A stretch of 64,000 nucleotides of DNA from an uncultured Alphaproteobacteria bacterium (lineage in GTDB: Bacteria; Pseudomonadota; Alphaproteobacteria; Rs-D84). Each line of letters starts with the position of its first letter. Positions within the stretch are counted from its first letter, which is position 1. Shown here in pieces: positions 164-55,868 of this stretch. Position numbers and translations under genes: made by a program. The notes below the pieces were generated by a model. It saw only the letters and a program-made list of their open reading frames with translations, was not told the DNA's origin and did no database searches. The stretch spans positions 322,246 through 386,245 of the forward strand of contig CAMORN010000001.1 of assembly GCA_946623825.1 (NCBI GenBank), written 5' to 3'.

Positions 164-279
164 ACTTAAAATATATCAATTTATTTGTCTAAATCAACTT
201 TTTTGTGTTTTTATATCAAAAGTTTTATTGCGTTTTGTTTGTCATTGTGTTAAAATATTCTCAACGAGAGGGATATTCC

Positions 280-2843: not shown

Positions 2844-2875
2844 AAAAAACACCCGCATAATACGGGTGTTTTTTA
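2844..2875. terminator. Bidirectional rho-independent terminator
   Basis: A-run, stem CACCCG / CGGGTG around loop CATAATA, then T-run. Sits between the convergent amiC and Fic-like genes. Confidence 0.6.
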
Positions 2876-3619
2876 TCGTAATATTTCGATAATTTCTTTT
2901 TGTGTGCGCAACATACATTTTTCCATGTATTCTGTGTAGGCACGACGGTTCCCTTGGACTCTTTCACGCAAAGCATTTGTGTATTCGTTTGCGTCGCTCT
3001 TTTTGTTGAATACAATAGGGCGATAACCATTTTGTATCAAAAACCAATTCATAATCATACGAGCAGTGCGTTTGTTAAAATCACTGAAAGGTTGTGTCAT
3101 GATAAGGTCGTAATGAACATCAAAAGCACGGGTTAACACAGAATGTGATTTATCGCTTAAATGATATTCTATATCGTTCATTCTGTAATAAATTTTTTCA
3201 ATAGATGGCGCAAATTCATCAAAAACCTTCACCATGCCAACACGATAGCCATTCGGGCAATCTGTGCCTTGTGTTAAAATGTCATGAATCTGGCGAATTT
3301 GATAAGAATCAATCTTTGTGCTTTTATGTTTCAAGATATAATCGTATGCCAAACCAATGTTTTTAAGATTTGTATAATCTACGGTTGTTTTGCGTTTCAC
3401 ACTTGGAACCAATTTTTGTTGAGGTTGAAACAAAACCAAAGGTTCAACAGATGTTATCTGATAGCGTAACATATTAATACTGTCCAGATTTTTAGCAGAA
3501 ATGTGCATTAAATCGTTAATAGTTTCACGATTTTGTTCGATTCTTTCTTTGTTTGTCAAACCCCGTGCCGCAGAATATGTCTGTTGCTTAGGTTGTTTTT
3601 TCTTTATACTTTTCTTCAT
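2873..3619 (-). CDS. Fic/Doc-family protein with a degenerate active-site motif
   Basis: VHYDLIMTQPFSDFNKRTARMIMNWFLIQNGYRPIVF aligns to the Fic core HxFx(D/E)GN(G/K)RxxR followed by the helix ending in GY.P. The His position is Gln and the first Gly is Phe. Confidence 0.7.
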   Translation of the reverse strand: MKKSIKKKQPKQQTYSAARGLTNKERIEQNRETINDLMHISAKNLDSINMLRYQITSVEPLVLFQPQQKLVPSVKRKTTVDYTNLKNIGLAYDYILKHKSTKIDSYQIRQIHDILTQGTDCPNGYRVGMVKVFDEFAPSIEKIYYRMNDIEYHLSDKSHSVLTRAFDVHYDLIMTQPFSDFNKRTARMIMNWFLIQNGYRPIVFNKKSDANEYTNALRERVQGNRRAYTEYMEKCMLRTQKEIIEILR

Positions 3620-30898: not shown

Positions 30899-31522
30899 TT
30901 AACAGCCGTAACAACGACAACAACGGTTCTTGTGGCACCAAGAATCTTGTTTTCTTAACCCAAAATGTGCAGGTTTGTATTTGTGTTCCATATCAGGTGC
31001 AACTTGAAAATCTAAGGTTATCGTTATTTTGTATTTTTTGTCACCTTTCTTTTGATGTTTTGTGCGATATACAGGTTTGGTGTCGCGTCTGGCATTGCAT
31101 ATTTTGTGTGTTGGTTGCATATTCGACATATCATAGCTGCCACCTTGAGATTTTGGTTTCATATGATCCCATGTGAACGACATCTGGTCTGATTGTTTTT
31201 CGTGTTTTAATTCATAAGTGCTGATTTTAATTGGCTGACCACACAATTTACAAACTGGATAAAATTCATAATCGCCCATAATAGCATATATTTGTTTCAT
31301 AGTTCTGCGATTTATAATGTTGTTCACATGGTCCATTTTTGTTAGATCAGATATAATCTTTTTAATTTCTTTTTTTATATCTATAAAAAAGAAAAACGCA
31401 CCAGTTTTTTTGCTGTGTGCGTTCGTAAGTGTGCAGAGCAGTTTTTTTAGATGTTCTTTATCCATACAGTTGGAAAGGGCACTTACATTGTGTAAAACCT
31501 GACGAATTTCATTGTTAGTCAT
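30899..31522 (-). CDS. HNH endonuclease-domain protein with Cys-rich tail
   Basis: CKLCGQPI ... FTWDHMKPKSQGGSYDMSNMQPTHKICNARR (C-x2-C ... DH..P.s.GG...N...H..CN). The C-terminus reads CHKNRCCRCYGC. Confidence 0.7.
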   Translation of the reverse strand: MTNNEIRQVLHNVSALSNCMDKEHLKKLLCTLTNAHSKKTGAFFFFIDIKKEIKKIISDLTKMDHVNNIINRRTMKQIYAIMGDYEFYPVCKLCGQPIKISTYELKHEKQSDQMSFTWDHMKPKSQGGSYDMSNMQPTHKICNARRDTKPVYRTKHQKKGDKKYKITITLDFQVAPDMEHKYKPAHFGLRKQDSWCHKNRCCRCYGC

Positions 31523-31660: not shown

Positions 31661-31734
31661 GCGGGCGTGGTATAATGGCAGAACGAAAGCTTCCCAAGCT
31701 TTAGACGAGGGTTCGATTCCCTTCGCCCGCACCA
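31661..31734 (+). tRNA. tRNA-Gly (anticodon CCC), encoded CCA
   Basis: GCGGGCGTGGTATAATGGCAGAACGAAAGCTTCCCAAGCTTTAGACGAGGGTTCGATTCCCTTCGCCCGCACCA. Acceptor GCGGGCG/CGCCCGC, anticodon loop TTCCCAA. Confidence 0.9.
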
Positions 31735-31738
31735 AGAT

Positions 31739-31775
31739 AAAAAAACAACCGGCGTTTTGCCGGTTGTTTTTGTTT
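31739..31775. terminator. Bidirectional terminator (tRNA-Gly and the giant gene)
   Basis: A-run, ACAACCGGC-GTTTT-GCCGGTTGT, T-run. Confidence 0.7.
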
Positions 31776-31786
31776 AAAATTGATTA

Positions 31787-34700
31787 TCAGAACACAGATG
31801 CGTCGTGGGCATTATATCTGTCACCACCGTATTCAACATGCATTTTACGTGATGAATCCTTGTTTATCGGAATTTCCGGATCTTTCGTCAACATTATGTA
31901 ATATGGAACATTGTTTTTGTGTATAACCATTGCAGGGTGGGTTGTCTGTTGTTCGTACATACATATTCTTTCGTTGCCGACACGCAGCCATTTGCCAGAT
32001 TCGCAAACGAATTCCCATATAGCGTATAAAGTGATTTCTGTTTCGTTATATGGTGGGTTTTCAGTCATTTTATTTGTGAAAGAAATCACATCACTGTCTG
32101 CAGATTTTGACCAGCCCAATAATCTATAACCAAATCTATTTATTTCGGTTTCTTTGTTATTTCTGATGTCGCAATTATAATCATCATATTCACAAACAAC
32201 ATCGTTTTTGAATCCGTTTCCACCATTTGCATCAAATTTCACAGTAAATGTATTATAACGCCAGTTTGCATAACAAGAAATCACTGTCCCTGTATCTTCA
32301 GCCCAAGAAATGTTTTCTGTGTTTATACTATAATTCTTTATCTTGCTCTTATATGCGTTGCTGACACAAGACCAACCATTAAATACTTTATCTTCTGCAT
32401 CAGGACATTCGGATAACGAATTTTTATAATTTCCAAGATTAAAGTTTTCACCATAACTGATTTGTTCATATCCGACAAGGTCTAATTTTTCATCGTTGCA
32501 ATAGACATTATAATCTAATTTGCTCTTTTCATAATAGCCGTATACGTCCAGCATACCGACAGTCAAAACATCGTTTTCTTGGTCTGCATAATCAACACCA
32601 TTTTCGTCTTGCCATGTTTTGAAAGCATAACCTTCTACATATTGAGGCCATATTTCTGAAAGAGGTATGCCATTTATATATTCTGCAATATATGGAACAT
32701 CTAATTCTTCTGTTTCATCGTTTATATTGTTGTGTACAGTGATTGTTGTAAAGCAATCATCAATAGATGTTAAACTGCCTTCTATGTAATTAGGGAACAA
32801 ATCAGGACATTTTTTACACGCTATTTCGCGTCTGTCATAATATTCATCGTCAGCACATGTGAATTCGCGCCATTGTGCGTGTAAATATACTTTATCATTG
32901 TCTACTTCGGTCAAATATTGTATATCCCCATCTGGACCGATGCTTGTCATGTCGGCAATGATATCTTCGTCATTGCATTCTGCAGTGTACATGTTTCCTT
33001 GACACCAACCAATGAAAGTGTTCATTTGTTTTGTGAATGGATTTTTTATCAATTGTTTTGTTTCACCATAATTGAAAGATTGTGTAGAAGTTCTGTTCGG
33101 TACACCGCTGTTAGGTCTAAAATACACTGTGTATTTTATAGGTCTACATTTATTTTGTGTAAGCGATGTTTCTTCGCCAGTTTCTGAATCTATAACAAAG
33201 GTTTCATCAACAACATATCCAACAAGGCAATTTGTGTCTTCTATGATACAATTTTCAGGTATTCTGGACGGTTCGCCATTTAATATAGTCCAAGAATCTT
33301 CCACTTTAAATTTACAAGATATCGCAGGTGATGTACATTCTGGCGGTGTGGTGCCACAGTTTTCTATATTATAACACTGTGATACAGATGTCGCCCCATC
33401 TGGTGCAAAAGGATAAGCATCTGGACAGGCAATACATGTATTTGTCGCACCGTCAAAATATTGACCTTTTTCAGCAGAATCAAGACCTGTTATACATTCT
33501 GGTTCTTCCCATTGTGCAACACAGTTTATTGATGTTAATGTCATATCTGGAACAATAGATGTTGCGGTATTCGTAAACGCGGCACCAGTATCACAAATCC
33601 AGCCAGTAAATCTGTATGTACCATATTTGTTTTCACAAGTATTTACACTTGGAATAGATATTGTTTGACCTGTCTTTTTTGTGCCAGAAACAATTAAATC
33701 TGAATTGTCTGAATCACAATAGAACGCATAATTCAAATCTAACTGGTTCCATTGGGCATACAAATTCAAATCAGTATAGAATGTTTTTTCTATTGTGTAT
33801 GGTTTATGATAATTTTGTTCATCGCATATTTCAGAAGAAACACACCAACCAGTAAATTCATAACCGTCTTTTATAGGGGTGCTTATTTGATATTCTTCGT
33901 CTATTTGATATGTGCTTGGATGTACAGGGCCTGTCCAATTAGTTATTTCAACACTGCCGTCGTAATATTTTACATTATATGTATCTTTGTGCCATTGTGC
34001 GTATAAATGTTCGGTTGCACCGTCTGTCGTTGATAAATGTGCAACATCTCCATCTGGGCCGACCACAGCACCATTTGTGATTATCGTATCACAGGTTTCG
34101 GCACCATGACACCAACCATCAAAAATATAACCATTTCTTTCAAATGTATTTAAATTCAAGTTAGTGTTTGTGTCATATACAAATAATTGATTTTCCATCT
34201 GTATATCGTTTGTGTTACTGTTACCATGGAATTCAACTGTATATGTTATAGGTTCACACACACCGTTGTTTTCTTTATAACCAACAGTGCAATTTGTAGC
34301 GTTAATTTGACAGCGACCATCTATATCAGTTGTTTTTGGATAATATACATTCCATGTTGTATCACCAATATATTCACAACTGGTCGCTTTTGGATGAACT
34401 TCATTACATTTTTCAATTGTTAATGGTAATGGATTGCAAGATTCTTTTTTATAACAACCATTTGCTGAATTTGTATCTGTATCAGAATAACCATATCCAT
34501 CAGGACACTGATGACAACTGTTAGTAGCCGTGTCAAAATATTCAGCAACTGTATCATTATTACCAACAGAACAATTTATTCTGTTCCATGTTGCAGTCCA
34601 TGTCGTTGTAAATTCTGACATGTTTCTTATATTTGCTATGAATGAATCAGTGTTTACAAAAAGACCGTCTTTATTAACTGTTTCTGTTAAACCAGAATCA

Positions 34701-37700
34701 ACAAAACCATTAAATGTATACCATGTGCGTTTTGGCAAATTGTCGTTTTGCAAACTATTTACAACTTTGTTTTCGTCTGCAAATACAACAGATTTATAAA
34801 TATCATTTCCATTTATTGCGTCTGCATAAATGTAAAGATGGTTTATATCGCCTGAAACCGCATCTTCGGCACCAGGGTCAAGAACTATTGTTTTTATTGC
34901 ACTCCATTGTGCGACCCATTTTAAATCGCCTGTGTTTATAATATTATCTATTGCAGATTTTCCATATTGGGTCAGGGTGCCATCTTTATTAACCATTAAG
35001 ACACCGTCGCTGCTGTTTGTGTAGCCAGCAAAAGAATAATTTGCTTTCGTTGGCAAGAACGCAGTTAAATTTGCAGAATTTGATGTGTTTCCAACAAAAT
35101 TCTTAAATTCTTGGTCGGCATAGAAAGAACCTTCGTCAATATAAAGGTGTCCCAAACCGCCTTCTGAACCTTCACCGTTATCAAGTTCTATATTATAGAA
35201 CGCAATAACCCAATGCGCCCACAAATCTATTTGACCGTTTACAAGATCACTTCTGTTAAATGTTGTATTTGTTAATTTTCCACCGACAAAATTACCATTT
35301 GAATCTATCAAAGCATCGCAGCCGTCCGGATTCTTTGGAATTGGTAAAGCTTGTCTGGTCAAACAATATCCTGTAAAACCGTGTCCTTTCCATTCTGGGG
35401 CAGTAATACTGTTGATTTCAACACCTTCGGCATTTTCAAAATGTTCACCATATATCTGATATATTTCAGTATTATCATCGTCGCCATTATCATAATTTAA
35501 AACGATTTTTATCTTAGCTGGGTTCCATGTTGCAAAACAAGACACTTGTTCCAGATAGCCGTTTTCCCATTTAACACCCGTTGCATCAATGTCAAAATCT
35601 TGGCTTATTGTCGCGTCGCTTGGTTTAATACATGTCCATTTTACAGGATCATATGTATTGTTGTATGCAGAACAAGAATCTATTATCAACTGTTTATTAT
35701 CAGATATATCAAATGTCTCATCAAAATGTTTCACAACTGTTGTAATTTTAGGATTAACATTTGAATCACAGTACAAATTATAAGACATTTCTTTTGCTGT
35801 GTAATATCCATGCAAGATGTTAAGCCCGTTTTCTGCTGCCAACACAGAATTTGAATTATATGTAATATCGCCCGTTGAATTTGTCCATTTTTGTAATTCA
35901 TAACCGTCCAATGGGGAAGCCGTTTGTTCTGAATTTAAATCAGACAACAATATTCCAGATTGTCTGGCCGAAGAATAATTATATTTTCTTGTTTCAAGTG
36001 TTTCGTACAAAGCATCATTTATATATTTTTCAATTTTAAGTTCAGAATAACAATTTTCCATGGTCATAGTTTCAAGGTTTGCTTTGTTCGACAATGGATA
36101 TGCAGCAGGGCACCCCTTGCAAGAATTAGATGCGGTATCAAAATATTGATTGTTTTCGCATACAATATCACCCCATCTTGCATATAAAGTTATTGTGTTG
36201 TCATCGTTGTTATCTGGTGTGTTATCAACGATGTTTGTAATACTTGTGGTTTTGGTGTTTTGGTCTGTGTACCAACCTTGGAATGTGTGCCCAATCCATT
36301 GTATATCGTTAAGCGCCAGTGGCAAATCGGTATAAATATAATTTGTAGTGGCTGGTTTGGATATGCTTCCGTTGGCGTCGCCCAGATTATATTCTATATG
36401 ATATGTTATTGGTTCCCATTTTGCATACAATGTTATATCTCTTGCAGAATCTGTAAGAACCGTATATGGATTAAATGAAGGTGAACAATTTGAATTTGTA
36501 TCATCACACCAACCAGCAAACACATAGTAAGGTTTTGTTGGGTTTTGTATGTCAAAATTATCTTGTTCTATATTATATAATGCAGGTGCCTCGTAATCTT
36601 GTGGCCATACGGCGTTTGCCATACTGGCTGTGTCATATTTAATTGAATAGTTTGTTGGTTCCCAATGTGCGTATAACACACCAGAGCCAGCTGTTTGCCA
36701 CATTTTTAATGATTCAATAGCACCATTTGATGAAACACCATAATATTTGTTTCCAGAATTATCTCTTGTGTCCCAATATCCGGTAAATGTGTATCCTTTG
36801 CGAACAGGTATAGTTAATGGTTTGTCGACATTGTTTTCTTTATATGTTGTTGGCACATAGTCATCATAAGTTGCAGAAACTGTTGCAACTTTTTGGTCTG
36901 TATCGCCATAGTTTTGATATAAATCAATGTTATATTTATTAGGATTCCATGTTGCATACCATACCGTGTCATCATCTGACAGGTTTTTCATAATTTCTTT
37001 TGCTCTGTTATTAAATACGATAAAGACATTATTGCTGCTTGCAGTTGTTGTTGCCATAGGACATAAACCAGCGGCGGTTTTTTCGGACGCATCACAGGTT
37101 CCTTCACCGACATAGCCAGAGAAAGTATAACCAGTTTTCAAAGGTATTCCATATGTGTTGGTGTTTATTTCCACGTCTTGTACAGTGCTGCCCAATCCTG
37201 AGTCAGAAACAAAACTTTCATTTGCGTTAACCAATGTGTGGTCTGTGTACATAGCAGACAATCCGTTGGTGTCTTCTGGGGTATTATTATTGATATCGTC
37301 ATCTGAATCTTCATTGTCCAGTGTTATTTTATAAAAACGGGTCCAATGAGCGGTCAATTCCATGTTATCAAAAACATCATATACCAATGAATTATAATTT
37401 TCTTCGCTGATGGTGGCTTTTCTGCTTCTTTGTGGGTTAATAACCATTGTTTCATTGTTGTCTATAATTCCATAGTATCCATCAAATCTGTGTTTTAACC
37501 ATGATGGTTCTTCAATATTATCTGTGTTAAAGAAGTTTATAGAATGTCCAATATCTTTATACAATTGTTTTGCATGTACACCATATAATTTAGATGTACC
37601 TTGTTCAACTTCAGATGTTGGGGCATTGTTTGCTTCGCCCAGATTCAAAATGATTTCGTACGCATTTGATTCCCATTTTGGATGGCAATCTATTCTGTAT

Positions 37701-40700
37701 AATTCTTGGTTATGGTTTGCAGGAATAATTGTGGTCCAATTATTGTCAGAAACCTTGTAATTAAATGGGTTAGGGGAACTTGCTGTATCAGGATTGTTTC
37801 CGCTGGACAGTGTATATTTTGTGCATTCCCATTCGCCTTTGTGGACATAATCTTCTGCTTCGGTACAAATCGGACTTGTTTGGTTTATTGTTTTATTTAA
37901 ATTGGTTGGGAAATTAATTTCTGCACCAAAAGACAACAAGGTTGGATTTTGTATTAGTTTAGTATTGTTCGTATCACAATATAAATTAACATTATATTGA
38001 TTATCATAAATACAGGTTGGATACATGTTTGTTGGGTTTTCATCAAAATGTGAAGCATTTACCACTATGTCACCATTGCTCGCAATCACCAGCCCCAGTC
38101 CTTCATAATAACCAATAAACTTTTTACCAGTCGCGCATCTTCCCTGTAAAACACCTTCATACATATTTGGTTGTTTCACATTGTCTATAACGAATTGTTT
38201 TGTGGTGTCCAAGAATTTATCACCATAACTTTCTTTTATATTAATAGCATTTTCCACATTATTATCATACAAATAAATATCTATTATCTGTGGTTCCACA
38301 GAAGAATAACATTCAACAGAATCAATAGACCCGTCAGTCTGGATACTGTCGCCACTGATAACGGATTCGCAATTTAAATCATCTGGTTTTATGCTTGAAT
38401 CATTTGGTTTATAACAGAAAGTTTCTGTTTTTTCACCGTTTTGGTTTTGACTGTTATATGTCTTTTTACATACCCAATAATAATGATTGTCGGTATGGCA
38501 AATGTTTTGTGTATCAAAACCACCAGTTTTACTGATAAGACCATATTTTGGATTACCCGGTGTTGTTGGTATTATGCTGTTTAATACGACGCCGGTTTCA
38601 ACAGCTGCACTGGTGCTTTCTGCACAGCTAAAACCATAAGATGTGCTTGAATCAACAAAATGTGCATATAAATCTATATTGCCATCAACAATATATTTTT
38701 CTAATTCAGATATCTTAGGTAAATCTGCTTGTGCTTCATTGACGGGCGGGGCAATTATTTGTTTGCCACTGTCATCTCTCACACTGTAATAACCATCAAA
38801 TTTTCCATATTTATTATCATCTGGATTTGATGGAATATAATTAGTTCCTGTTCCAGAATTGTCCTGCAGAGCATATATTGGCGTATTAACTTCGTGATTT
38901 ACTGGGTTATAGTCTCTATAATAACCTCTTACGAATGTAAGGCCTTGTTGTTCATCTATAACAAAAGATTTTAAATCGTATTTAACATATAAAGTATATG
39001 TTTCTTTATCAGGTGTTTGGGCATTGTTTCCGTTGTTCCCATGCAATGTTAAGGTATATATTTTTGGTCTGAACGATGGTGTGCATCTTACAGTATATGT
39101 TCCGGTTGGGTATGTTATACTGTTTAATAATTCACCGGTTGTCGAATCATATACAGGCAAATATTTTATGACGTTATCACGATCACTAAGTTGTGCACAC
39201 TGCCAGAATACTTCTTTGTGTTCCTTGTAAAAATCGTTAGAATAACCGCATCTTGATATAACTGTTTCATCACTTGGGAACAAATTGCCTTCTTTTGCAG
39301 ATACAGTTGTGTTTTGACCGACTATATCTTCGTTGTAACCTGGGGTTTTACCCAATACAATAGAATCACCAATCTTGCTGGTATAATTTCCATTATTACA
39401 TTTGAATATTATTTCGGTCTGTTTCTGCCAATCGGCTACTAAATTTGTATGTTGGCTGACCGCTTTATCCTTATAAGAATCGTCTATGAATGTACCGTTT
39501 TCATCTATTACTTGAATTCTTCTGTTGATACTTTGATCTGTGTACCAATAACCTAAGAATTTCCACGCGTGTGCAGATGGTACATTTGGTAAAGTGTCAT
39601 TAACCAATGCTGGGCCAACGACCGTTCTTGTTTGGGCATCATAGGAAGATTTTGGATAGATTTCCGTGAGATATTGTTCATACAAAATATCTGGGCCTGC
39701 GACTTTGTTTGGTGCGTTTTGCAGATTAGGATCTTTTCCAAAATTATCGCTTAATGTTATTTTATACATCTGTGGGCGCCATACACCATATAATTGCACA
39801 ATATGTTGGACATCATTTGGAATTGTTTCTTCTGGGTTTGGTGTGTAGACGCTGCCGTTTCTACAATATAAAGAATTCCATCTCAACCCTGCAGATGAAA
39901 GAACATTACCGTTTGCATTATAATATCTTACCGCCTTTCCAGAAGCGGTATCTTCGATATTCGTGGTTAAATTACCCATATTATCAGCAGCACAACTGCG
40001 GATTCCATTGTATCCGATAAATTCATATCCCGGACATTCTGGAACAACCAATCTGTTGTCATTTATGTCCACGGTGTACATTATACCATTGGTTTTATAT
40101 GTTTCTATTATCTGGTCTGGCACAGGGCTGTTGATTTCAAGGTTTTCTTCATCAAAATAGGCATTTGGAACAAATTCACCACTGAAAATACCTTTTGTGT
40201 TAACATGACTATAATCAATACCGTTTGAGTTTCTTGCGTTATAACAGTTTCTGTACAAATATATTTTTTCCAACGGTCTTTCTGTACTGGATCCTTTTAC
40301 TACACACATAAGCTTTCTGGTTGAATTTGAACTTTGATTATAAAAACTGTCTTCTTCATTAGAATCTGCAACACGATACAAACCATTAAGGATTCGTGGT
40401 AATCCACTGGTTGGGTCGGAACCTTCTACTGCTACTAAATTTTCATTTGATGCTTCACCTAATGCTTCACATTGTTCATTAGCAGTTGAAAAATTTGTGC
40501 CTGTTTCTGCAATGCCAAGTGAACCCGCGTTTATATTTGGAACCCCAACAAACATACCAGCAGTGGCCTTGGCAGAATTGACAGAATTAATACAAACATC
40601 ACCAAAAAACATTCTTGGAATATAATTTATGGTTTCTTTTGTGCCTGTTTCTGTAGAATATAAATATTGTATGTTGGAACACCCATAAAACGTTTCAGCA

Positions 40701-41761
40701 TATGCTTTTGAATCTGAAGAAAAGTTTTCATAATTACCGCACTGTTGTTGTAATAGTGTTGTTTTGTGTGTGACACGACGACCAAATCCCTGAAACAAAT
40801 ATCTTGGGATACCAGTTAAGCTAGAACAATTTTTAAATGTTCTGAAAAACATTTCTGGTTGGGTCGCGTTTGCAAATGTATCAAATAAACCTTCTGGAAT
40901 ATCACCAGTCAACCCAGAGCAACCTGAAAATGTACTACTAAATAAACTTGGGGTTATATCACCTTTGATACTTTTGAACAGATTTGCAGGTATTCCATAC
41001 ATACCCAACCCGTTTTCAGTACCCAATTTCGAACATCCTGCAAATGTTGCAAAGAACATAGCGTCAGAAGGGGTACCACGCAACCCATTAGAAAACAGGT
41101 TTTCTGGAATTTGACCCTCTAATTCAGAGCAACCTGCAAAAGCACTGCGGAAACTTGGCTGCTTTTGAACAGATTCTTGTATGATATTATAATCAACATC
41201 TGGCCCCAGACTGATATCTGTATGGGTAGGGAACACAGCGCCCAAAGAACCGTAAATTCCTTTTACAGCATAGTTGTTTTCGATGCTTTCTGTACCACCA
41301 CCAGAAAAAACTATTGCACCAGATGTTTTGCTATAGCCCCTGTAATCACAATCAGCAGATCTTCTAAATTTAATATAACGCGTATTGGCGTTGGTATATG
41401 TTTTTTCAAATTTTATTGTGTTGACAGTCTTTTTCTTGAAAGAAGCAACGAAATCATTTCTTCTGTATTCTTTAATTTCTGTGTTGTCTGGCAATTCTTC
41501 TTGGTATACAGACATTTGTCCGGCGCCACATTCTTCATCATCCAGACTTGCACAGTCCCATTTGATATCATAACAACCGGCGGCACTTAAAGAAAAAGTG
41601 AATTTATAACCATCTTGTAATCTTGGTGTTATTTTGACAGCAAAATAATCTGTAATTGCATCATCTGCAAACGAAGGTTGTGCAAAAACTGGTACAAAAA
41701 CGACAGATAACGCAAAAACTGCGCTTTTTAAAACAGCACAAAAATCGCGGAATACCGCCAT
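31787..41761 (-). CDS. Giant secreted mosaic surface protein (3,324 aa from ATG 41761): LRR-like repeats, InlB-type B-repeats and Cys-rich modules
   Basis: Uninterrupted 10 kb ORF. ATG 41761 follows AGGAAGGA. Signal peptide MAVFRDFCAVLKSAVFALSVVFVPVFAQPSFA. See the sub-features for the repeat content. Confidence 0.85.
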   Translation of the reverse strand: MAVFRDFCAVLKSAVFALSVVFVPVFAQPSFADDAITDYFAVKITPRLQDGYKFTFSLSAAGCYDIKWDCASLDDEECGAGQMSVYQEELPDNTEIKEYRRNDFVASFKKKTVNTIKFEKTYTNANTRYIKFRRSADCDYRGYSKTSGAIVFSGGGTESIENNYAVKGIYGSLGAVFPTHTDISLGPDVDYNIIQESVQKQPSFRSAFAGCSELEGQIPENLFSNGLRGTPSDAMFFATFAGCSKLGTENGLGMYGIPANLFKSIKGDITPSLFSSTFSGCSGLTGDIPEGLFDTFANATQPEMFFRTFKNCSSLTGIPRYLFQGFGRRVTHKTTLLQQQCGNYENFSSDSKAYAETFYGCSNIQYLYSTETGTKETINYIPRMFFGDVCINSVNSAKATAGMFVGVPNINAGSLGIAETGTNFSTANEQCEALGEASNENLVAVEGSDPTSGLPRILNGLYRVADSNEEDSFYNQSSNSTRKLMCVVKGSSTERPLEKIYLYRNCYNARNSNGIDYSHVNTKGIFSGEFVPNAYFDEENLEINSPVPDQIIETYKTNGIMYTVDINDNRLVVPECPGYEFIGYNGIRSCAADNMGNLTTNIEDTASGKAVRYYNANGNVLSSAGLRWNSLYCRNGSVYTPNPEETIPNDVQHIVQLYGVWRPQMYKITLSDNFGKDPNLQNAPNKVAGPDILYEQYLTEIYPKSSYDAQTRTVVGPALVNDTLPNVPSAHAWKFLGYWYTDQSINRRIQVIDENGTFIDDSYKDKAVSQHTNLVADWQKQTEIIFKCNNGNYTSKIGDSIVLGKTPGYNEDIVGQNTTVSAKEGNLFPSDETVISRCGYSNDFYKEHKEVFWQCAQLSDRDNVIKYLPVYDSTTGELLNSITYPTGTYTVRCTPSFRPKIYTLTLHGNNGNNAQTPDKETYTLYVKYDLKSFVIDEQQGLTFVRGYYRDYNPVNHEVNTPIYALQDNSGTGTNYIPSNPDDNKYGKFDGYYSVRDDSGKQIIAPPVNEAQADLPKISELEKYIVDGNIDLYAHFVDSSTSYGFSCAESTSAAVETGVVLNSIIPTTPGNPKYGLISKTGGFDTQNICHTDNHYYWVCKKTYNSQNQNGEKTETFCYKPNDSSIKPDDLNCESVISGDSIQTDGSIDSVECYSSVEPQIIDIYLYDNNVENAINIKESYGDKFLDTTKQFVIDNVKQPNMYEGVLQGRCATGKKFIGYYEGLGLVIASNGDIVVNASHFDENPTNMYPTCIYDNQYNVNLYCDTNNTKLIQNPTLLSFGAEINFPTNLNKTINQTSPICTEAEDYVHKGEWECTKYTLSSGNNPDTASSPNPFNYKVSDNNWTTIIPANHNQELYRIDCHPKWESNAYEIILNLGEANNAPTSEVEQGTSKLYGVHAKQLYKDIGHSINFFNTDNIEEPSWLKHRFDGYYGIIDNNETMVINPQRSRKATISEENYNSLVYDVFDNMELTAHWTRFYKITLDNEDSDDDINNNTPEDTNGLSAMYTDHTLVNANESFVSDSGLGSTVQDVEINTNTYGIPLKTGYTFSGYVGEGTCDASEKTAAGLCPMATTTASSNNVFIVFNNRAKEIMKNLSDDDTVWYATWNPNKYNIDLYQNYGDTDQKVATVSATYDDYVPTTYKENNVDKPLTIPVRKGYTFTGYWDTRDNSGNKYYGVSSNGAIESLKMWQTAGSGVLYAHWEPTNYSIKYDTASMANAVWPQDYEAPALYNIEQDNFDIQNPTKPYYVFAGWCDDTNSNCSPSFNPYTVLTDSARDITLYAKWEPITYHIEYNLGDANGSISKPATTNYIYTDLPLALNDIQWIGHTFQGWYTDQNTKTTSITNIVDNTPDNNDDNTITLYARWGDIVCENNQYFDTASNSCKGCPAAYPLSNKANLETMTMENCYSELKIEKYINDALYETLETRKYNYSSARQSGILLSDLNSEQTASPLDGYELQKWTNSTGDITYNSNSVLAAENGLNILHGYYTAKEMSYNLYCDSNVNPKITTVVKHFDETFDISDNKQLIIDSCSAYNNTYDPVKWTCIKPSDATISQDFDIDATGVKWENGYLEQVSCFATWNPAKIKIVLNYDNGDDDNTEIYQIYGEHFENAEGVEINSITAPEWKGHGFTGYCLTRQALPIPKNPDGCDALIDSNGNFVGGKLTNTTFNRSDLVNGQIDLWAHWVIAFYNIELDNGEGSEGGLGHLYIDEGSFYADQEFKNFVGNTSNSANLTAFLPTKANYSFAGYTNSSDGVLMVNKDGTLTQYGKSAIDNIINTGDLKWVAQWSAIKTIVLDPGAEDAVSGDINHLYIYADAINGNDIYKSVVFADENKVVNSLQNDNLPKRTWYTFNGFVDSGLTETVNKDGLFVNTDSFIANIRNMSEFTTTWTATWNRINCSVGNNDTVAEYFDTATNSCHQCPDGYGYSDTDTNSANGCYKKESCNPLPLTIEKCNEVHPKATSCEYIGDTTWNVYYPKTTDIDGRCQINATNCTVGYKENNGVCEPITYTVEFHGNSNTNDIQMENQLFVYDTNTNLNLNTFERNGYIFDGWCHGAETCDTIITNGAVVGPDGDVAHLSTTDGATEHLYAQWHKDTYNVKYYDGSVEITNWTGPVHPSTYQIDEEYQISTPIKDGYEFTGWCVSSEICDEQNYHKPYTIEKTFYTDLNLYAQWNQLDLNYAFYCDSDNSDLIVSGTKKTGQTISIPSVNTCENKYGTYRFTGWICDTGAAFTNTATSIVPDMTLTSINCVAQWEEPECITGLDSAEKGQYFDGATNTCIACPDAYPFAPDGATSVSQCYNIENCGTTPPECTSPAISCKFKVEDSWTILNGEPSRIPENCIIEDTNCLVGYVVDETFVIDSETGEETSLTQNKCRPIKYTVYFRPNSGVPNRTSTQSFNYGETKQLIKNPFTKQMNTFIGWCQGNMYTAECNDEDIIADMTSIGPDGDIQYLTEVDNDKVYLHAQWREFTCADDEYYDRREIACKKCPDLFPNYIEGSLTSIDDCFTTITVHNNINDETEELDVPYIAEYINGIPLSEIWPQYVEGYAFKTWQDENGVDYADQENDVLTVGMLDVYGYYEKSKLDYNVYCNDEKLDLVGYEQISYGENFNLGNYKNSLSECPDAEDKVFNGWSCVSNAYKSKIKNYSINTENISWAEDTGTVISCYANWRYNTFTVKFDANGGNGFKNDVVCEYDDYNCDIRNNKETEINRFGYRLLGWSKSADSDVISFTNKMTENPPYNETEITLYAIWEFVCESGKWLRVGNERICMYEQQTTHPAMVIHKNNVPYYIMLTKDPEIPINKDSSRKMHVEYGGDRYNAHDASVF
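32750..32857 (-). other. Cys-rich module A2 (paralogue of A1)
   Basis: CADDEYYDRREIACKKCPDLFPNYIEGSLTSIDDCF (residues 2979-3014). Confidence 0.6.
33143..33496 (-). other. Cys-rich module B2 (paralogue of B1)
   Basis: CITGLDSAEKGQYFDGATNTCIACPDAYPFAPDGATSVSQCYNIENCGTTPPECTSPAISCKF...ENCIIEDTNCLVGYVVDE...KCRP (residues 2766-2883). Confidence 0.6.
34253..34573 (-). other. Cys-rich module B1 (extended, about 107 aa)
   Basis: CSVGNNDTVAEYFDTATNSCHQCPDGYGYSDTDTNSANGCYKKESCNPLPLTIEKCNEVHPKATSCEY...GRCQINATNCTVGYKENNGVCEP (residues 2407-2513). Confidence 0.6.
36047..36160 (-). other. Cys-rich module A1 (C-x4-Y-F-D-x5-C-x2-CP)
   Basis: CENNQYFDTASNSCKGCPAAYPLSNKANLETMTMENCY (ORF residues 1878-1915). 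Confidence 0.6.
40532..41155 (-). repeat. Five leucine-rich-type repeats with core F-x-G-C-S-x-L-x-G-x-IP-x-x-LF (BspA/DUF285-like)
   Basis: FRSAFAGCSELEGQIPENLF / FFATFAGCSKLGTENGLGMYGIPANLF / LFSSTFSGCSGLTGDIPEGLF / FFRTFKNCSSLTGIPRYLF / YAETFYGCSNIQ...IPRMFF (ORF residues 213-420). Confidence 0.6.
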
Positions 41762-41830
41762 CTGTATAAAAATCCTTCCTTTTATATACACAGAGTGTAG
41801 AAAAATGCGAAAATTAAGTAAAGCAAAAAA

Positions 41831-42904
41831 TTATATGTGTTTTTGTTTTAATGTGTCGGCTATAACTTTAAGCTTTGATATCACATTCGTGACGGAAAAA
41901 ATCTTTTGATTACAGACTTTTTTAATGTTTGTTTTGGTTCCATTATTGCAAACTGGACATTGATTAATATCTGTGTTTTGCAACGCAGGGCATGTTTTAA
42001 GCATTTTTATTATCGGTTTTTGTTGTCCGGTGTATAATTTCGAGTATTGTTCTTTGTTTGTTTTTTTCATGTTTAACAAAAACACATATGCTGGACAAAT
42101 TTGTTTTGCTTGTTCTGATTTTTGCTTTATTTCTGCGTAATATCGTTTTTGTTGTGCAAGATATCTTTCTTTATTTGCTTCGTAATTTTCTTTGTTCTTT
42201 TTGCAATATTGTTCGTGTTTTGCAACATAACATTTTTTCTTGCGTTCAGATACTGCCTGAGCATTTGTTTTGCGATATTTCTTAAAATATCTCTTTAAAT
42301 GTTCTGCGTTATCTTGACGCCATTGTGATTGGTATGCACGATATTGTTCAACATGATTCAACCGCCATTGTTTGTTTCTTTCAAGAACAAGCTTTTTATT
42401 TAACCGATAAAATCTGCGTTTGTTTTTTCGATTGTATTCACGAACAAATTCTTTTCGTTCTTGTACAGCTATATGAATTTTTTCGATTATATTTGGTTTT
42501 GATTTTATTAAATATGCACTACGGTTTTGCAATACAGATTCTTGATTTAATCTTTTTATTTTGTCTATTTGTATTTGAAAGGGGATTTTTTTAGAAATAA
42601 ATAAAATTAAATTTTCATCAACGTACGCACCACCACACATTAAATCAATAAATTCTGTTTCTGTAAAAACATTTTTTAAATCAGATTTTTCTAAAAAAGT
42701 TTTAATGTCTTTTACATAACTTGAATCAAATAAAAACCATTCTAAAAACAATTCTGATAATGTTGTTATTCGTCCAATTTCATTGTCAGAATAAACAGTA
42801 TTTGTTAAACTATAATTGCCATCTTCTGAATTCATAAAAGCAAACATACCGGAAGCGATGGAATAATTTTCTTCAAAAAGTTTTTCTGGGGTATTCATGT
42901 TCAA
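41831..42904 (-). CDS. Hypothetical protein (357 aa) with periodic basic Tyr/Trp-Asn repeats and a C-terminal Cys cluster
   Basis: Clean ORF 14 nt downstream of the radical SAM gene. Residues 150-265 are K/R/Y/N/E-rich with about 19-aa periodicity. The C-terminus has CPAL...CPVCNNG...C. Confidence 0.6.
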   Translation of the reverse strand: MNMNTPEKLFEENYSIASGMFAFMNSEDGNYSLTNTVYSDNEIGRITTLSELFLEWFLFDSSYVKDIKTFLEKSDLKNVFTETEFIDLMCGGAYVDENLILFISKKIPFQIQIDKIKRLNQESVLQNRSAYLIKSKPNIIEKIHIAVQERKEFVREYNRKNKRRFYRLNKKLVLERNKQWRLNHVEQYRAYQSQWRQDNAEHLKRYFKKYRKTNAQAVSERKKKCYVAKHEQYCKKNKENYEANKERYLAQQKRYYAEIKQKSEQAKQICPAYVFLLNMKKTNKEQYSKLYTGQQKPIIKMLKTCPALQNTDINQCPVCNNGTKTNIKKVCNQKIFSVTNVISKLKVIADTLKQKHI

Positions 42905-42918
42905 TATTTACTTTAATA

Positions 42919-43767
42919 TTATTTAATAATCTGTTGAAACGAGTTTATAATTTTAATTAAACTGCGATTGTTAACTTGTGTGCGATATATGTAATTATAG
43001 GTTGCAATATCATTGTTATCTAACACCAAACAATTGTGTCTATCACTGTTAGTTGGTTGACCAGAATTTGTATAAACTTTATTTATTTTTGCGCGACCTG
43101 AATTAAACACACTAGATGAAAAATCATTGTATATAAACATTGTGTTTTTACCGTCTGGTGATGTTATTATCCAATCACCAATTTCATTTGTAATGATATT
43201 AAAATCTTTCTTGGATAATTCTTGTTCTAAATTATTTAATGCAAACAATGATTTTTGTGTGTTAAAACCAACCAGACAAATTCTGATTGCATAAGACAAA
43301 GCGATTTCTTTTGTAATATCATTGATTATTTTTATAACACCACTTTGATTGTTATGAAATTCATCAACAGAAATATCTAGTGTTACTAATTTTTCGTATT
43401 TATAAGCATACTTTGCAATATCATACAATATTTTAATACGCGTTCTGTCGCTGTTTCCCCAAACACCATTTGTTTTGAGTGTTGGAATAAAACCGTTTTT
43501 ATAAATAATATCTAACAGATTTGGAATATAATTATCTTGTCCGTGAATATAAGGTGCCATAACTTCACCGCCACCAACACTTAACAATTCATTTGGTTTT
43601 TTGTCCATGCGTGCGGCTTCGTACATATATTTTTCAATTTTTTCTAATGAAAATAATTTTAATGGTTGGGTTGGGGCGCTGCATTCACAACAATGTCGAC
43701 AATTTAAGTCGCACCAATTTGTTATCTTGAAATGAAGATTCCATTTTGTATTCATATTGGACAACAA
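42919..43767 (-). CDS. Radical SAM enzyme (minimal, about 280 aa, no obvious SPASM or auxiliary-cluster domain)
   Basis: NWCDLNCRHCCE gives C-x3-C-x2-C at residues 19-26, and SVGGGEVM is the GGE SAM-binding motif. TTG at 43767; an alternative ATG lies at 43755. Confidence 0.7.
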   Translation of the reverse strand: MLSNMNTKWNLHFKITNWCDLNCRHCCECSAPTQPLKLFSLEKIEKYMYEAARMDKKPNELLSVGGGEVMAPYIHGQDNYIPNLLDIIYKNGFIPTLKTNGVWGNSDRTRIKILYDIAKYAYKYEKLVTLDISVDEFHNNQSGVIKIINDITKEIALSYAIRICLVGFNTQKSLFALNNLEQELSKKDFNIITNEIGDWIITSPDGKNTMFIYNDFSSSVFNSGRAKINKVYTNSGQPTNSDRHNCLVLDNNDIATYNYIYRTQVNNRSLIKIINSFQQIIK

Positions 43768-43770
43768 ACA

Positions 43771-44034
43771 TTATCTGCCATTTCTTTTGGGATTATATGT
43801 GTTGTTTAGGTCGTGTGTAAATTTGCTTATTTCCCTGACGCGTTCCCATCGTAATAAAAGATTATATCTTTCGATTTCGCGCATATAATCCAATAATTTT
43901 TGTTTATCTTCCAATTTTACATTAACAAACCAATTAGCATACATTATACCCCTTATTTGTCCCATCAATTTGCGACAATTTGGTTCTTTCTTTAAATTTC
44001 TGGACATATAATAAGGTTGAACGTATTTTGGCAT
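43771..44034 (-). CDS. Small basic hypothetical protein (87 aa)
   Basis: ATG 44034 after AAGGA. 3-nt gap to the radical SAM ORF and 9-nt gap from the LysM gene. No known motif. Confidence 0.5.
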   Translation of the reverse strand: MPKYVQPYYMSRNLKKEPNCRKLMGQIRGIMYANWFVNVKLEDKQKLLDYMREIERYNLLLRWERVREISKFTHDLNNTYNPKRNGR

Positions 44035-53369: not shown

Positions 53370-55868
53370 TTATTTTTCGTTTGGACTTCTGATATTTTGA
53401 ATTTCGCATTGTTGATTGAAATATGTTCCGCCCAACATATCGCATCTGCTTTCATACCAAGCAGGGGTTAAAACACATTGATTCAAAGCTTCATCAAATT
53501 CAGCCAACGCAACTTCAAGCATCTTGTTTTTATCTGATGGGTCTCTGTTCTGTTCAAGACATGTTGTCTTTAAATTACCACTTACACAATAACCAACATC
53601 TTCAAGATTAAGGTTCGCGACACTTGATGCATTTGCAATAGATACACCATAATATTTTTTATAGAATTCAGCATGTAAATCTGCCGCATTCAGATTTTTT
53701 ATGTCGCCGCCATTCATCCAAATACCATCCAGACTTTCACAACCGACAGAAAATCCAATTCCCAATTCAGCAAAAACATCTTTGATTATGCGGTCTCTGA
53801 TTTCGAGATTAAACGCAGATATTTCATTTGTTCCGATTGTATTAGATTCATCGTTTTTAACCAAATCTGTTGCACAGAATATTTTTATACGACTTTCCAA
53901 GGCGGCACGCAATTCTTGTTTTTGTTTTGTTTTGCAAGAACCATATTTAACTGTTTTGATAACAGTTCCTTCTTCGTCTTTGATTTCTTCGTCAGGGCAA
54001 ATTGTTGCTAAATATTTTTCCAATGCAACCTCGCATCCTTCGGCAACTTTAACACTATCAACAGTATCAACGAAAGCTAACAATGCTTGTAAACCACAAG
54101 TTTTGTTTGGAACAGGGGTTAATTTTTTGCTTTTGTCATCATATTGACAACCGTCTGGGTCACCATACAATGCAGCACAAGCCATAACACGTTCATAACA
54201 CATACCACGTGCAGCAACCGCAGATATTGCTTTTGTAGAACTTTGTTCTCCTTCACCAACGGTTGTGTCTAAACTGTCCATCGCACCTGTTTGTTTATCA
54301 TAACATTGTTTAATTGTCGCAACACAAGAATCTTTTACAGATTCAATCTTTGTGTCTTGTGCTTGTGCGATTTGAATAAGTGCACTGCGCTTAAATTCAA
54401 ACCATACTGTATCTGCAATATCGCGACATGAATTTAAAGCTGTTTCGGCAAACATTCTTTTTGAATCAAGGAAATCATTAAATCCTTTATTTGCCCCTAA
54501 AACATCAGCACTGTCGCCCAATACAATTAAATTATTTAAACCAAATAAAGCCTTTGAATAAATAGGTTCGCCGGTTGTTGTATTTATATATTGACCAGTA
54601 TAATCCATACATCTTTCATAATTTGGTCCACAAGCCAACGGATTTTTAAGTGCTTCTTCAACCTTGGTTAAACATTGGTTTACGTCTGCTGAATTGTGTG
54701 CACGATATTCTTCCAATCTTGCTTCGCGTAAATATTTTTCAGCCTGACGAACGGTTTCTTCAACAGAAGCCTTTTTTGCATTGATGTTCTTTTCATATAA
54801 ATTACAATCTTGGGTTACCAATATTGAATATGAAGAACGCGCTAAATTAAACATAGCGTCGCTATTGCAAGCCTCGCGGGTAATTTGTGAACATTGATTG
54901 CTAGCTGATGTGAATAACTCTTTACCTTCCATTTCAGCTAAATTTGTAGTATCATTATTTTCGCCAAACAAAGATGTGCCACCACCAAAGGCATCGCCAC
55001 CACCCCAAACATTATCCAACGAAGATGAAAAACCAGACAAATCTAAAACACCAATTGAATTACCAGTATTTGAACTTGGTTTAGATGTAGATTTCTTTTT
55101 GCCTGCCAATATATCACTGATGTTATCTAACATTTTTTGTGATGCTGATGTGTCTCTTTTAATAGCTGCTTCACCTTCGGTTGCAGTGTACATTGCGTTA
55201 ACTTCTGCGGCAGTTTTATCAACAGCATCTAAATTGTTGTTTTGGAAATCAGCCAACATTTGCAAAGCTTCGTCTAAAGCGTTTGCTGTATCACGAAAGT
55301 CTGTAAATCTATCGCTACAAAAACATCTTCTGTATGTTTCGTTGGCAGCTGCACAGAATTGATCCATACATGTTGCATAAGAATCACGACAAGCCGCATA
55401 TCCGCCACCAATTTTTGAAACATCGTTAAATACAGCTGTTGCACGTGATTTGTTTGCACGAGAAGTATTTTTATCAGATGAAATATTTTTCTTGTTTGCA
55501 GAAGAATGTATCACAGTGCCAGATTTTTTGACTGCATTAGATGCTGCAGCACGAGAAACATTTGCACCACCGGAAACAACATTATTTCCAGAACGAACGG
55601 AACGACCAGCATCAACAGAACGTTGAACCGCAGCGGCACGAGAATTTACAACAGTATGTTTTTTACTGTTTGCAGACACATTACGTGCAATAACAGATGT
55701 TGCAGAGCGTCTGAGCGAAGCATTTGCGTTTGCTTCTTGAACATAAGAAGCATTTCGCCCCGTTGCAGCGTTACTGCCACGTGGATTTTGTGCCTGAACC
55801 CCAAAAGCAATCCCCGGCAAAATCATTGCCATTGCAGATAATTTTAGAATATTTTTTATGCCCACCAC
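53370..55868 (-). CDS. Large secreted Cys-rich protein (832 aa), paralogue family with 280..1530
   Basis: Signal MVGIKNILKLSAMAMILPGIAFGVQA. About 110 aa of S/A/N/R-rich low complexity, then repeated Cys pairs and triplets (ACRDSYATCMDQFCA, MCYERVMACAALYGDPDGC, CGPNYERCMDY, and others). Confidence 0.7.
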   Translation of the reverse strand: MVGIKNILKLSAMAMILPGIAFGVQAQNPRGSNAATGRNASYVQEANANASLRRSATSVIARNVSANSKKHTVVNSRAAAVQRSVDAGRSVRSGNNVVSGGANVSRAAASNAVKKSGTVIHSSANKKNISSDKNTSRANKSRATAVFNDVSKIGGGYAACRDSYATCMDQFCAAANETYRRCFCSDRFTDFRDTANALDEALQMLADFQNNNLDAVDKTAAEVNAMYTATEGEAAIKRDTSASQKMLDNISDILAGKKKSTSKPSSNTGNSIGVLDLSGFSSSLDNVWGGGDAFGGGTSLFGENNDTTNLAEMEGKELFTSASNQCSQITREACNSDAMFNLARSSYSILVTQDCNLYEKNINAKKASVEETVRQAEKYLREARLEEYRAHNSADVNQCLTKVEEALKNPLACGPNYERCMDYTGQYINTTTGEPIYSKALFGLNNLIVLGDSADVLGANKGFNDFLDSKRMFAETALNSCRDIADTVWFEFKRSALIQIAQAQDTKIESVKDSCVATIKQCYDKQTGAMDSLDTTVGEGEQSSTKAISAVAARGMCYERVMACAALYGDPDGCQYDDKSKKLTPVPNKTCGLQALLAFVDTVDSVKVAEGCEVALEKYLATICPDEEIKDEEGTVIKTVKYGSCKTKQKQELRAALESRIKIFCATDLVKNDESNTIGTNEISAFNLEIRDRIIKDVFAELGIGFSVGCESLDGIWMNGGDIKNLNAADLHAEFYKKYYGVSIANASSVANLNLEDVGYCVSGNLKTTCLEQNRDPSDKNKMLEVALAEFDEALNQCVLTPAWYESRCDMLGGTYFNQQCEIQNIRSPNEK

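Follow-up and report, generated by a model that had tools for sequence, protein, structure and literature searches.

The window examined here, by which we mean the whole 64,000-nucleotide (nt) stretch of DNA that was analysed (GenBank assembly GCA_946623825.1, contig CAMORN010000001.1, positions 322,246 to 386,245), carries on its minus strand a single uninterrupted open reading frame (ORF) for a protein of 3,324 amino acids (aa), referred to below as the giant. A preliminary description, made from the sequence alone, had regarded it as an internalin-like adhesin or invasin with a unique C-terminus of 75 aa. From its N-terminus the giant comprises a predicted signal peptide, a beta-sandwich, five repeats of leucine-rich repeat (LRR) type, a linker, a long stalk of B-repeat and Cys-rich modules, and a C-terminal module of 74 aa predicted to form three beta-hairpins. 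Far from being unique, this tail module is a small, undescribed domain found at the end of about 1,000 other clusters of secreted proteins; judging from its distribution, it probably serves to attach them to the cell surface or to sort them there. The features of the gene and its flank are listed below.

41830..41859, minus strand: promoter-like site (consensus match CCGACA-18-TATAAT)
41773..41780, minus strand: ribosome-binding site AGGAAGGA (read from the sequence)
31787..41761, minus strand: coding sequence, 3,324 aa (ORF and identical ENA protein)
41666..41761, minus strand: predicted signal peptide, aa 1-32 (MAVFRDFCAVLKSAVFALSVVFVPVFAQPSFA/DD; sole hydrophobic peak and N-termini of homologues)
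41252..41665, minus strand: N-terminal beta-sandwich, about aa 33-170 (AlphaFold2 (AF2) model and homologue consensus)
40562..41179, minus strand: five DUF285/BspA-type LRR-like repeats, about aa 195-400 (repeat cores and homologues)
40127..40561, minus strand: linker with no assignable family, aa 401-545 (AF2 per-residue confidence, pLDDT, <50)
32012..40126, minus strand: stalk of about 17-21 B-repeat (Flg_new) modules with interspersed Cys-rich modules, aa 546-3250 (Pfam, TIGR02543 and an iterated hidden Markov model (HMM))
36032..36160, minus strand: Cys-rich module 1, aa 1868-1910 (motif match)
34256..34573, minus strand: Cys-rich module 2, long form, aa 2397-2502 (motif and self-comparison)
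33146..33496, minus strand: Cys-rich module 3, long form, aa 2756-2872 (motif and self-comparison)
32738..32857, minus strand: Cys-rich module 4, aa 2969-3008 (motif match)
31790..32011, minus strand: conserved three-beta-hairpin module, aa 3251-3324, with the pair Cys3253-Cys3267 (alignments A1 and A2, profile search and AF2)
31741..31771, minus strand: intrinsic terminator (stem and T-run)
31661..31734, plus strand: tRNA-Gly(CCC), flanking the giant (also present in the related locus L009)

The tail pattern of the giant is shared by 14 homologues of its head, in which it is C-terminal or, in two cases, N-terminal. A profile of 14 sequences, the giant included (alignment A1), was searched exhaustively against 1.84 billion cluster representatives and matched 1,030 of them at E ≤ 1e-3, with 278 still matching at E ≤ 1e-10; almost all of these matches lie at the very C-terminus. 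Among the best 150 matches the module lay no more than 16 residues from the C-terminus in 143, stood just after the signal peptide in six and was spurious in one. The matching proteins span 74 to 3,324 aa and have very different regions upstream of the module. The giant itself scores 92.4 bits, a value that is not independent, the giant being among the 14 sequences of A1, and the same profile gave six short matches only against a word-indexed database. The consensus is roughly C..G..L..G....L....T.PA..V...G..YY..L......(I)N......V.Y.G..Y..(H)D; in the close subfamily of alignment A2 the Cys pair is invariant, and Tyr, His and Asp residues are conserved. A scan of GTDB used A2 and so covers only this 'FVCESGKW' subfamily of the module. 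AF2 models the module as six strands in three hairpins (pLDDT 84.6; predicted template modelling score, pTM, 0.71). No match to it was found in Pfam, NCBIfam, PHROGs, PDB sequences or the PDB structures searched with Foldseek (best E 1.2), a plasmid collection yielded no significant match, and cluster look-ups of ten module-bearing proteins returned no names.

Several proteins of one genome carry the module. At least three module-tailed proteins are encoded on the same 99-kb contig, namely the giant itself, a second giant with Flg_new repeats (2,614 aa) and a DUF285 protein of 947 aa, the last two lying just past the end of the window and directly upstream of secA-dnaE-rsmH (L006 1-7181). The module follows the signal peptide in P0035, P0036, P0143, P0151 and P0222 and forms a tandem pair in P0090. 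N-terminal and tandem copies of this kind are easier to reconcile with a binding or anchor domain that works in any position than with an export signal that has to be C-terminal.

Two further observations concern module-bearing proteins. A second recurrent Cys-rich domain, roughly G.W.V.F.YG.I.G...C......CWC......W.F.......C...CA..C.....R..LF, occurs in P0143, P0222, P0105, P0093, P0099 and the 947-aa protein (L006 4338-7181); it is often paired with the tail module, is absent from the giant and has no Pfam match (0 families in P0143). In an 'Alphaproteobacteria bacterium' metagenome-assembled genome (MAG), a 135-aa protein made of signal peptide, Cys-rich stretch and module is encoded within a run of small genes (L007/L008 4241-8408), which comes after outer-membrane-like genes of the Pom family (PF17251) and of DUF3078 (weak match).

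The giant gene is real. The ORF extends from an ATG at 41761 to a stop codon at 31787-31789, in agreement with the preliminary description. An alternative GTG start would extend it to 41791; the ATG is favoured because AGGAAGGA precedes it alone, 11 nt upstream, with nothing alike before the GTG. A promoter-like site (CCGACA, an 18-nt spacer and TATAAT; 10 of 12 positions, a consensus match only) overlaps the 3' end of the upstream 355-aa ORF (41831-42904), and 16 nt past the stop codon there is an intrinsic terminator with a 13-bp stem containing six G-C pairs, followed by a T-run. The assembly is metagenomic, and the sole full-length identical copy retrieved belongs to the same ENA scaffold, so an assembly artefact or a decaying pseudogene had to be considered. 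Such an origin is hardly credible. The probability of meeting no stop across 3,324 codons is about 1e-112 at the local base composition, and the start signals and terminator are intact. At the DNA level the gene is free of tandem and long direct repeats that might collapse or expand, and its internal protein repeats are merely 21-38% identical to one another, which makes assembly collapse of repeats unlikely. Four independent MAGs also encode giants of comparable build. ENA scaffold_221 (99 kb) carries a call of the identical protein, which is also recorded on contigs of two other size classes, three in all; over 15,975 nt the ENA copy of the locus shows 100% identity to the window, and it is probably the same assembly rather than independent proof.

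The sole strongly hydrophobic stretch of the giant, aa 7-27, is followed by AQPSFA/DD, and a like N-terminal pattern occurs in the homologues P0002, P0088 and P0105. The N-terminus is thus a predicted Sec-type cleavable signal peptide, as had been read before. A lipoprotein was rejected, there being no lipobox-type Cys at the cleavage region. Beyond generic features, the signal regions of the giant (41666-41761), P0002, P0088 and P0105/L004 share F-R-x-F-x-R/A-x-x-K/R-T/S-x-x-F-A-L/I, which may be a family-specific extended signal motif.

The head that follows was modelled by AF2 with a pTM of 0.84. Strands of the sandwich occupy head-model residues 7-139, with pLDDT mostly 84-95 (model m78effea25c69), the repeats exceed 90, and pLDDT falls below 50 beyond residue 379, in the linker, where P0002 is the sole aligning homologue (aa 401-545). 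The sandwich corresponds to the 'F.F.ISA.G.F.IDWGDG...HTY' domain of the homologues, some of which have PKD matches. The five repeats counted in the preliminary description are present, with cores of the form F-x-x-C-S-x-L-x-G-x-IP-x-x-LF at aa 208, 240, 278, 309 and 358. Many of the 80 head homologues have precomputed matches to PF03382 or PF13306; the head aligns with proteins of this kind at E values of 1e-20 to 1e-33 (phmmer), and the repeat region is 39% identical to the PF03382 region of P0024 (BLASTP, E 8e-21), a protein that itself scores PF03382 at E 1e-14. Neither family gave a direct match to the whole giant at E ≤ 1 or to aa 30-540 at 0.01, and neither matched any of the 34 members of alignment A3, the closest, alphaproteobacterial relatives. 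On sequence grounds the head repeats are a divergent branch of the DUF285/BspA-type repeats, linked to them through homologues only, and are not internalin LRRs. The whole 408-aa head model, used as a Foldseek query, returned weak matches to the sandwich part only (best E 0.13), and the head had no match among PDB sequences.

The stalk is matched by the Listeria-Bacteroides repeat models Flg_new (PF09479), in seven stretches (102.9 bits, cut-off 27; E 1e-29), and TIGR02543, in six (74.9 bits against 20.95; E 4.5e-21), which makes the giant a genuine Flg_new repeat protein. The signature of its units of about 70-90 aa, G[YH].F.G[WY] ... L[YW]A.W, was located by regular expressions, which gave 11 and 17 sites. 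When an HMM was iterated on the giant, it mapped 17 clear B-repeat units (for example nt 33989-34255, 36413-36661 and 32012-32260), with E values that are not independent, the model having been trained on the giant itself; about four more, four-Cys variants were read by eye (nt 39077-39406, 38297-38644, 37676-38029 and 35522-35788), so that the earlier estimate of about 18 units was a fair one. Two super-repeats, aa 1825-2100 / 2914-3210 and aa 2348-2600 / 2716-2976, show growth of the stalk through block duplication and later divergence.

The four Cys-rich modules noted before match C..[YF][YF]D...C..CP..[YF][PG] at aa 1868, 2397, 2756 and 2969, and modules 2 and 3 are paralogous (31% identity, E 9e-15). 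They resemble the ephrin-receptor-like, or GCC2_GCC3, pattern, and PF07699 matches two of 34 homologues (best E 2.2e-6). On the giant itself PF07699 gave no match at E ≤ 1; of the HMM matches anticipated in the preliminary description, those to PF09479 and TIGR02543 were obtained and those to PF13306, PF03382 and PF07699 were not. The 90 Cys residues of the giant are arranged in patterned modules, as would suit an oxidising environment outside the cytoplasm. Its last 1,457 aa had no match among PDB sequences.

Among known systems, the closest to the giant in the way they work are the LRR surface proteins of BspA/DUF285 type and the adhesin-like, Flg_new-rich proteins of gut microbes. DUF285/BspA proteins (PF03382 and PF13306; Tannerella forsythia BspA, Mycoplasma DUF285) likewise have a head made of a sandwich ('IDWGDG...HTY') and F..C..L.G.IP..LF repeats of about 35 aa, and BspA shares the layout of signal peptide, LRR, Ig-like repeats and conserved C-terminal domain. 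They differ in that the giant and its alphaproteobacterial subfamily lie below the Pfam thresholds of both families, and in that the giant has five repeats only, lacks the usual '...NY..IP..WK' cap, is 4-6 times longer than typical members and ends in a domain other than the T9SS (type IX secretion system) C-terminal domain (CTD). Flg_new-rich proteins have been reported as gut-adaptation, adhesin-like proteins, the repeat being widespread in gut microbes including archaea (PMC9723798). Those of Methanomassiliicoccales and Methanimicrococcus resemble the giant in their multiple repeats, secretion, digestive-tract host and proposed role in attachment; they use other anchors, for example PGF-CTERM in archaea, and none has been reported with the tail module or the size of the giant (PMC9723798). 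Together with the signal peptide and the Flg_new matches, this bears out the earlier placement of the giant among very large, repeat-built proteins of the adhesin-like class with Sec-type export.

The adhesins secreted by type I systems (T1SS) with repeats-in-toxin (RTX) sequences, such as LapA and SiiE, and the autotransporter adhesins also reach several thousand residues and combine a beta-rich rod with a presumed terminal binding region. The giant differs from them in its N-terminal Sec-type signal and in the family of its repeats, and it has no RTX repeats, T1SS-type C-terminus or beta-barrel. An RTX/T1SS adhesin was rejected because of the Sec-type N-terminus, the absence of GGxGxD (regular expression) and the lack of any match to RTX models of Pfam or NCBIfam at E ≤ 1. 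An autotransporter-like barrel was rejected because neither PF03797 nor PF03895 (YadA_anchor) matched at E ≤ 1 and the strands at the C-terminus are not long enough for a barrel and are too polar for one. No LPXTG motif is present, the sole loose match being NPDTA at aa 1323, and a sortase substrate was rejected on this account. These results uphold the earlier statement that LPXTG, GGxGxD, autotransporter and RTX signatures are missing.

We infer a surface location and an adhesive function for the giant and an anchoring role for its tail module. The anchoring or sorting reading is favoured by the C-terminal bias across unrelated architectures, the presence of several different proteins of this kind in one genome and the N-terminal and tandem copies. 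Because the tail is the sole feature common to about 1,000 other secreted-protein clusters, no part of the giant is a better candidate for the anchor or sorting element that is otherwise missing. We give an even chance to the proposal that the giant is a Sec-exported, fibre-like, adhesin-type surface protein whose tail module attaches or sorts it to the envelope. In such a protein the cleavable signal peptide would lead into Sec export, the sandwich and five DUF285/BspA-type repeats of the head would likely bind a ligand in the rumen or gut, and the stalk of about 2,700 aa, with some 20 B-repeat and four disulfide-rich modules, would hold the head far from the cell. The disulfide-containing three-beta-hairpin module, which marks a large family of the lineage's secreted proteins, would keep its bearers on the envelope, as a non-covalent attachment or sorting domain that may recognise an envelope component such as lipopolysaccharide, a capsule glycan or an outer-membrane partner. 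Analogues of an envelope-attachment tail are the GW modules of InlB, SLH domains and the T9SS CTD of BspA, and SLH, LysM, GW and choline-binding anchors function at the N-terminus or in tandem.

Several observations weigh against this proposal. The head alone lies below the Pfam thresholds for every LRR family, PDB sequence and Foldseek searches of the module yield nothing significant and hence no structural tie to an envelope ligand, and its sole marginal fold matches (BFVD) are three uncharacterised gut-phage proteins. No outer-membrane translocation route is found among the window genes. Furthermore, P0238 and P0239 (133-135 aa) consist of a signal peptide, a short Cys-rich stretch and the module, which is odd for an anchor because there is almost no passenger; a ligand-binding role fits them equally. 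The main rival to anchoring is indeed a lectin-like binding unit, in which the module would be a tip that binds plant fibre, mucus, protozoa or microbe glycan, on a protein that is released or held by its N-terminus. These stand-alone proteins with little beyond the module speak for such a tip, as do the tandem module of P0090, the N-terminal module of several proteins and the combination of beta-hairpins with conserved aromatics, which recalls carbohydrate-binding hairpin repeats; the combined repetitive oligopeptides (CROPs) of TcdA are among the Foldseek matches, not significantly (E 2). We nevertheless consider a lectin-like tip a possible but less favoured explanation, since so strong a bias to the extreme C-terminus over hundreds of unrelated architectures would rather be expected of a common sorting or anchor element, the module recurs on several proteins of different build in one genome, the DUF285 head is the more conventional candidate for ligand binding, and no significant similarity to a known lectin or carbohydrate-binding module was found in Pfam, PDB sequences or Foldseek.

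The module might also be an export signal for a dedicated outer-membrane translocon, similar to the T9SS CTD and perhaps cleaved off in exchange for covalent attachment to a glycolipid of the surface. The logic is that of T9SS cargo, an N-terminal Sec signal with a conserved C-terminal domain of about 75 aa on many diverse, unrelated secreted proteins of one lineage, and in one MAG P0238 adjoins genes for predicted outer-membrane proteins (Pom PF17251, DUF3078). Tannerella BspA is an LRR protein displayed via the T9SS; to our knowledge this system is known in Bacteroidota only. The giant was rejected as T9SS cargo: CTD models (TIGR04183/Por_Secre_tail, PF18962) had no match at E ≤ 1 in NCBIfam or Pfam, Foldseek returned no CTD structure from the PDB, and the predicted topology is three hairpins rather than a seven-strand sandwich. 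With N-terminal and tandem modules ill-suited to an obligate C-terminal signal, a host outside Bacteroidota and no candidate translocon gene in the window, an export signal of this kind appears unlikely. An oligomeric outer-membrane beta-barrel anchor, like that of trimeric autotransporters and amounting to a new type V-like autotransporter, would account for a tail that is short (about 74 aa), all-beta and C-terminal in a protein ending in Phe. We give it almost no credence: the predicted strands span only 5-9 residues, contain a Cys pair and are charged on either face, the last residue in relatives is N, E, M or Q and not an aromatic one, the module is also N-terminal and tandem, and YadA_anchor and autotransporter models did not match.

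Homology to Listeria internalins, with an invasin that binds a host receptor through an internalin LRR, was also considered; the preliminary description had called the giant internalin-like. The B-repeat half of that label stands, because the Flg_new matches are significant and LRR-type and B-repeats occur together as in InlB; InlB also shares the outline of an LRR head, a B-repeat spacer and a C-terminal non-LPXTG module that is possibly a non-covalent anchor. The parallel is one of outline only. The LRR type differs, there are about 20 B-repeats rather than one, and searches at E ≤ 1 and by regular expression revealed no N-cap, 22-residue LRR, inter-repeat region, GW module or LPXTG motif, the LRR, Internalin_N, LRR_adjacent and GW/SH3_8 models all being without a match. 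Moreover, the repeats align with DUF285 proteins, no PDB sequence of InlA or InlB was matched, and the host is a diderm alphaproteobacterium of a rumen commensal-type MAG lineage and not a Gram-positive bacterium, Flg_new itself being common in gut microbes. An internalin-type invasin is consequently very improbable, and no evidence for an invasin was found.

The assignment of the window to an alphaproteobacterium was supported. NCBI-sourced homologues are labelled as MAGs of 'Alphaproteobacteria bacterium', and the SecA and DnaE of the window are 89% and 84-85% identical to those of the rumen MAGs RUG791, RUG14344 and RGIG6783 (Sheep_Rumen); by these sequence relationships the host is an uncultured rumen/gut alphaproteobacterium. 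The sample name, SHIW14-1, may hint at sheep rumen as the source of the metagenome, if we read the label correctly. Four rumen MAGs hold giants of 2,019 to 2,748 aa with the same tail, in three of them (L002, L003 and L005) directly upstream of secA-dnaE-rsmH. Their identity to the window giant is 25-45% and their modules stand in different orders, which indicates a mosaic, fast-evolving family. A literature search on RF32 and DUF285 found nothing specific.

The window is otherwise ordinary chromosome, with trmD, rimM, rpsP, pfk, dnaK, rpoD, recN, secA (61410-63989, minus strand) and dnaE. In the more distant relative L009 (DnaK 88% identical, 50% GC) the order L19-TrmD-RimM-S16 ... tRNA-Gly(CCC) ... 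HNH-LysM-PFK ... DnaK-L25 is kept, and the block of giant, 355-aa ORF, radical SAM gene and 87-aa ORF is missing, with HNH abutting LysM. The giant hence lies in a variable region beside tRNA-Gly(CCC). Its GC content is no different from that of its flanks, and L009 has a small module-bearing protein between PFK and DnaK. Comparison of window 31661-44034 with L009 5291-8010 shows genes for GIY-YIG, TM2 and HNH proteins in place of the giant block, and the variable hotspot holds homing-endonuclease-like genes (HNH at window 30899-31522).

Among the neighbours of the giant, the 355-aa ORF directly upstream (41831-42904, minus strand) is rich in Lys, Arg, Gln and Tyr, has 'KKYR/QYR'-like repetitive stretches and matched nothing in Pfam or NCBIfam. 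A radical SAM protein (42919-44034, minus strand) has a weak YydG-like match (E 1.9e-12, far below the cut-off), and its gene is followed by an 87-aa basic ORF without a family; the two could be a peptide-modification pair, with no link to the giant established. A 579-aa ORF (5652-7391, plus strand) matches AccD at aa 12-278 and AccA at aa 302-563, so that the carboxyltransferase subunits of acetyl-CoA carboxylase appear to be fused, and an AccD-AccA arrangement of 583 aa also adjoins the L004 giant. The 832-aa ORF at 53370-55868 (minus strand) has no Pfam match and keeps its position on the ENA contig (831 aa in L006, no Pfam on record), and no NCBIfam match was found for the 638-aa ORF at 14303-16219 (minus strand) or the 441-aa ORF at 205-1530 (plus strand). 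A 248-aa ORF (2873-3619, minus strand) has a weak match to the type III effector XopAC/AvrAC (E 3.8e-6, far below the cut-off) and may contain a Fic-like domain.

The giant is new in its size, in combining these features within a lineage of diderm Alphaproteobacteria and, most of all, in its undescribed tail module. Rumen and gut communities regularly include uncultured low-GC Alphaproteobacteria, and the gene shows this lineage building very large mosaic adhesin-like fibres from DUF285 LRRs and B-repeats, parts that elsewhere characterise gut Firmicutes, Bacteroidota and methanogens. Should the tail be no more than a binding tip, the giant would be a routine, though very large, member of the adhesin-like class. 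If instead the tail is an anchor or sorting tag, its sequence could be used to catalogue every surface protein of the lineage and would offer a starting point toward the machinery that displays proteins of 3,000 residues on diderm cells in the absence of type I, V or IX signatures. A further and less likely reading makes the tail the element that would be recognised in a new surface-display pathway of gut and rumen Alphaproteobacteria, one that could act by sorting or by covalent or non-covalent attachment. We know of no T9SS-CTD-like or sortase-like system in this lineage; such a pathway would be a counterpart of the T9SS CTD or sortase signals, and the approximately 1,000 clusters would define the surface proteome of these bacteria.

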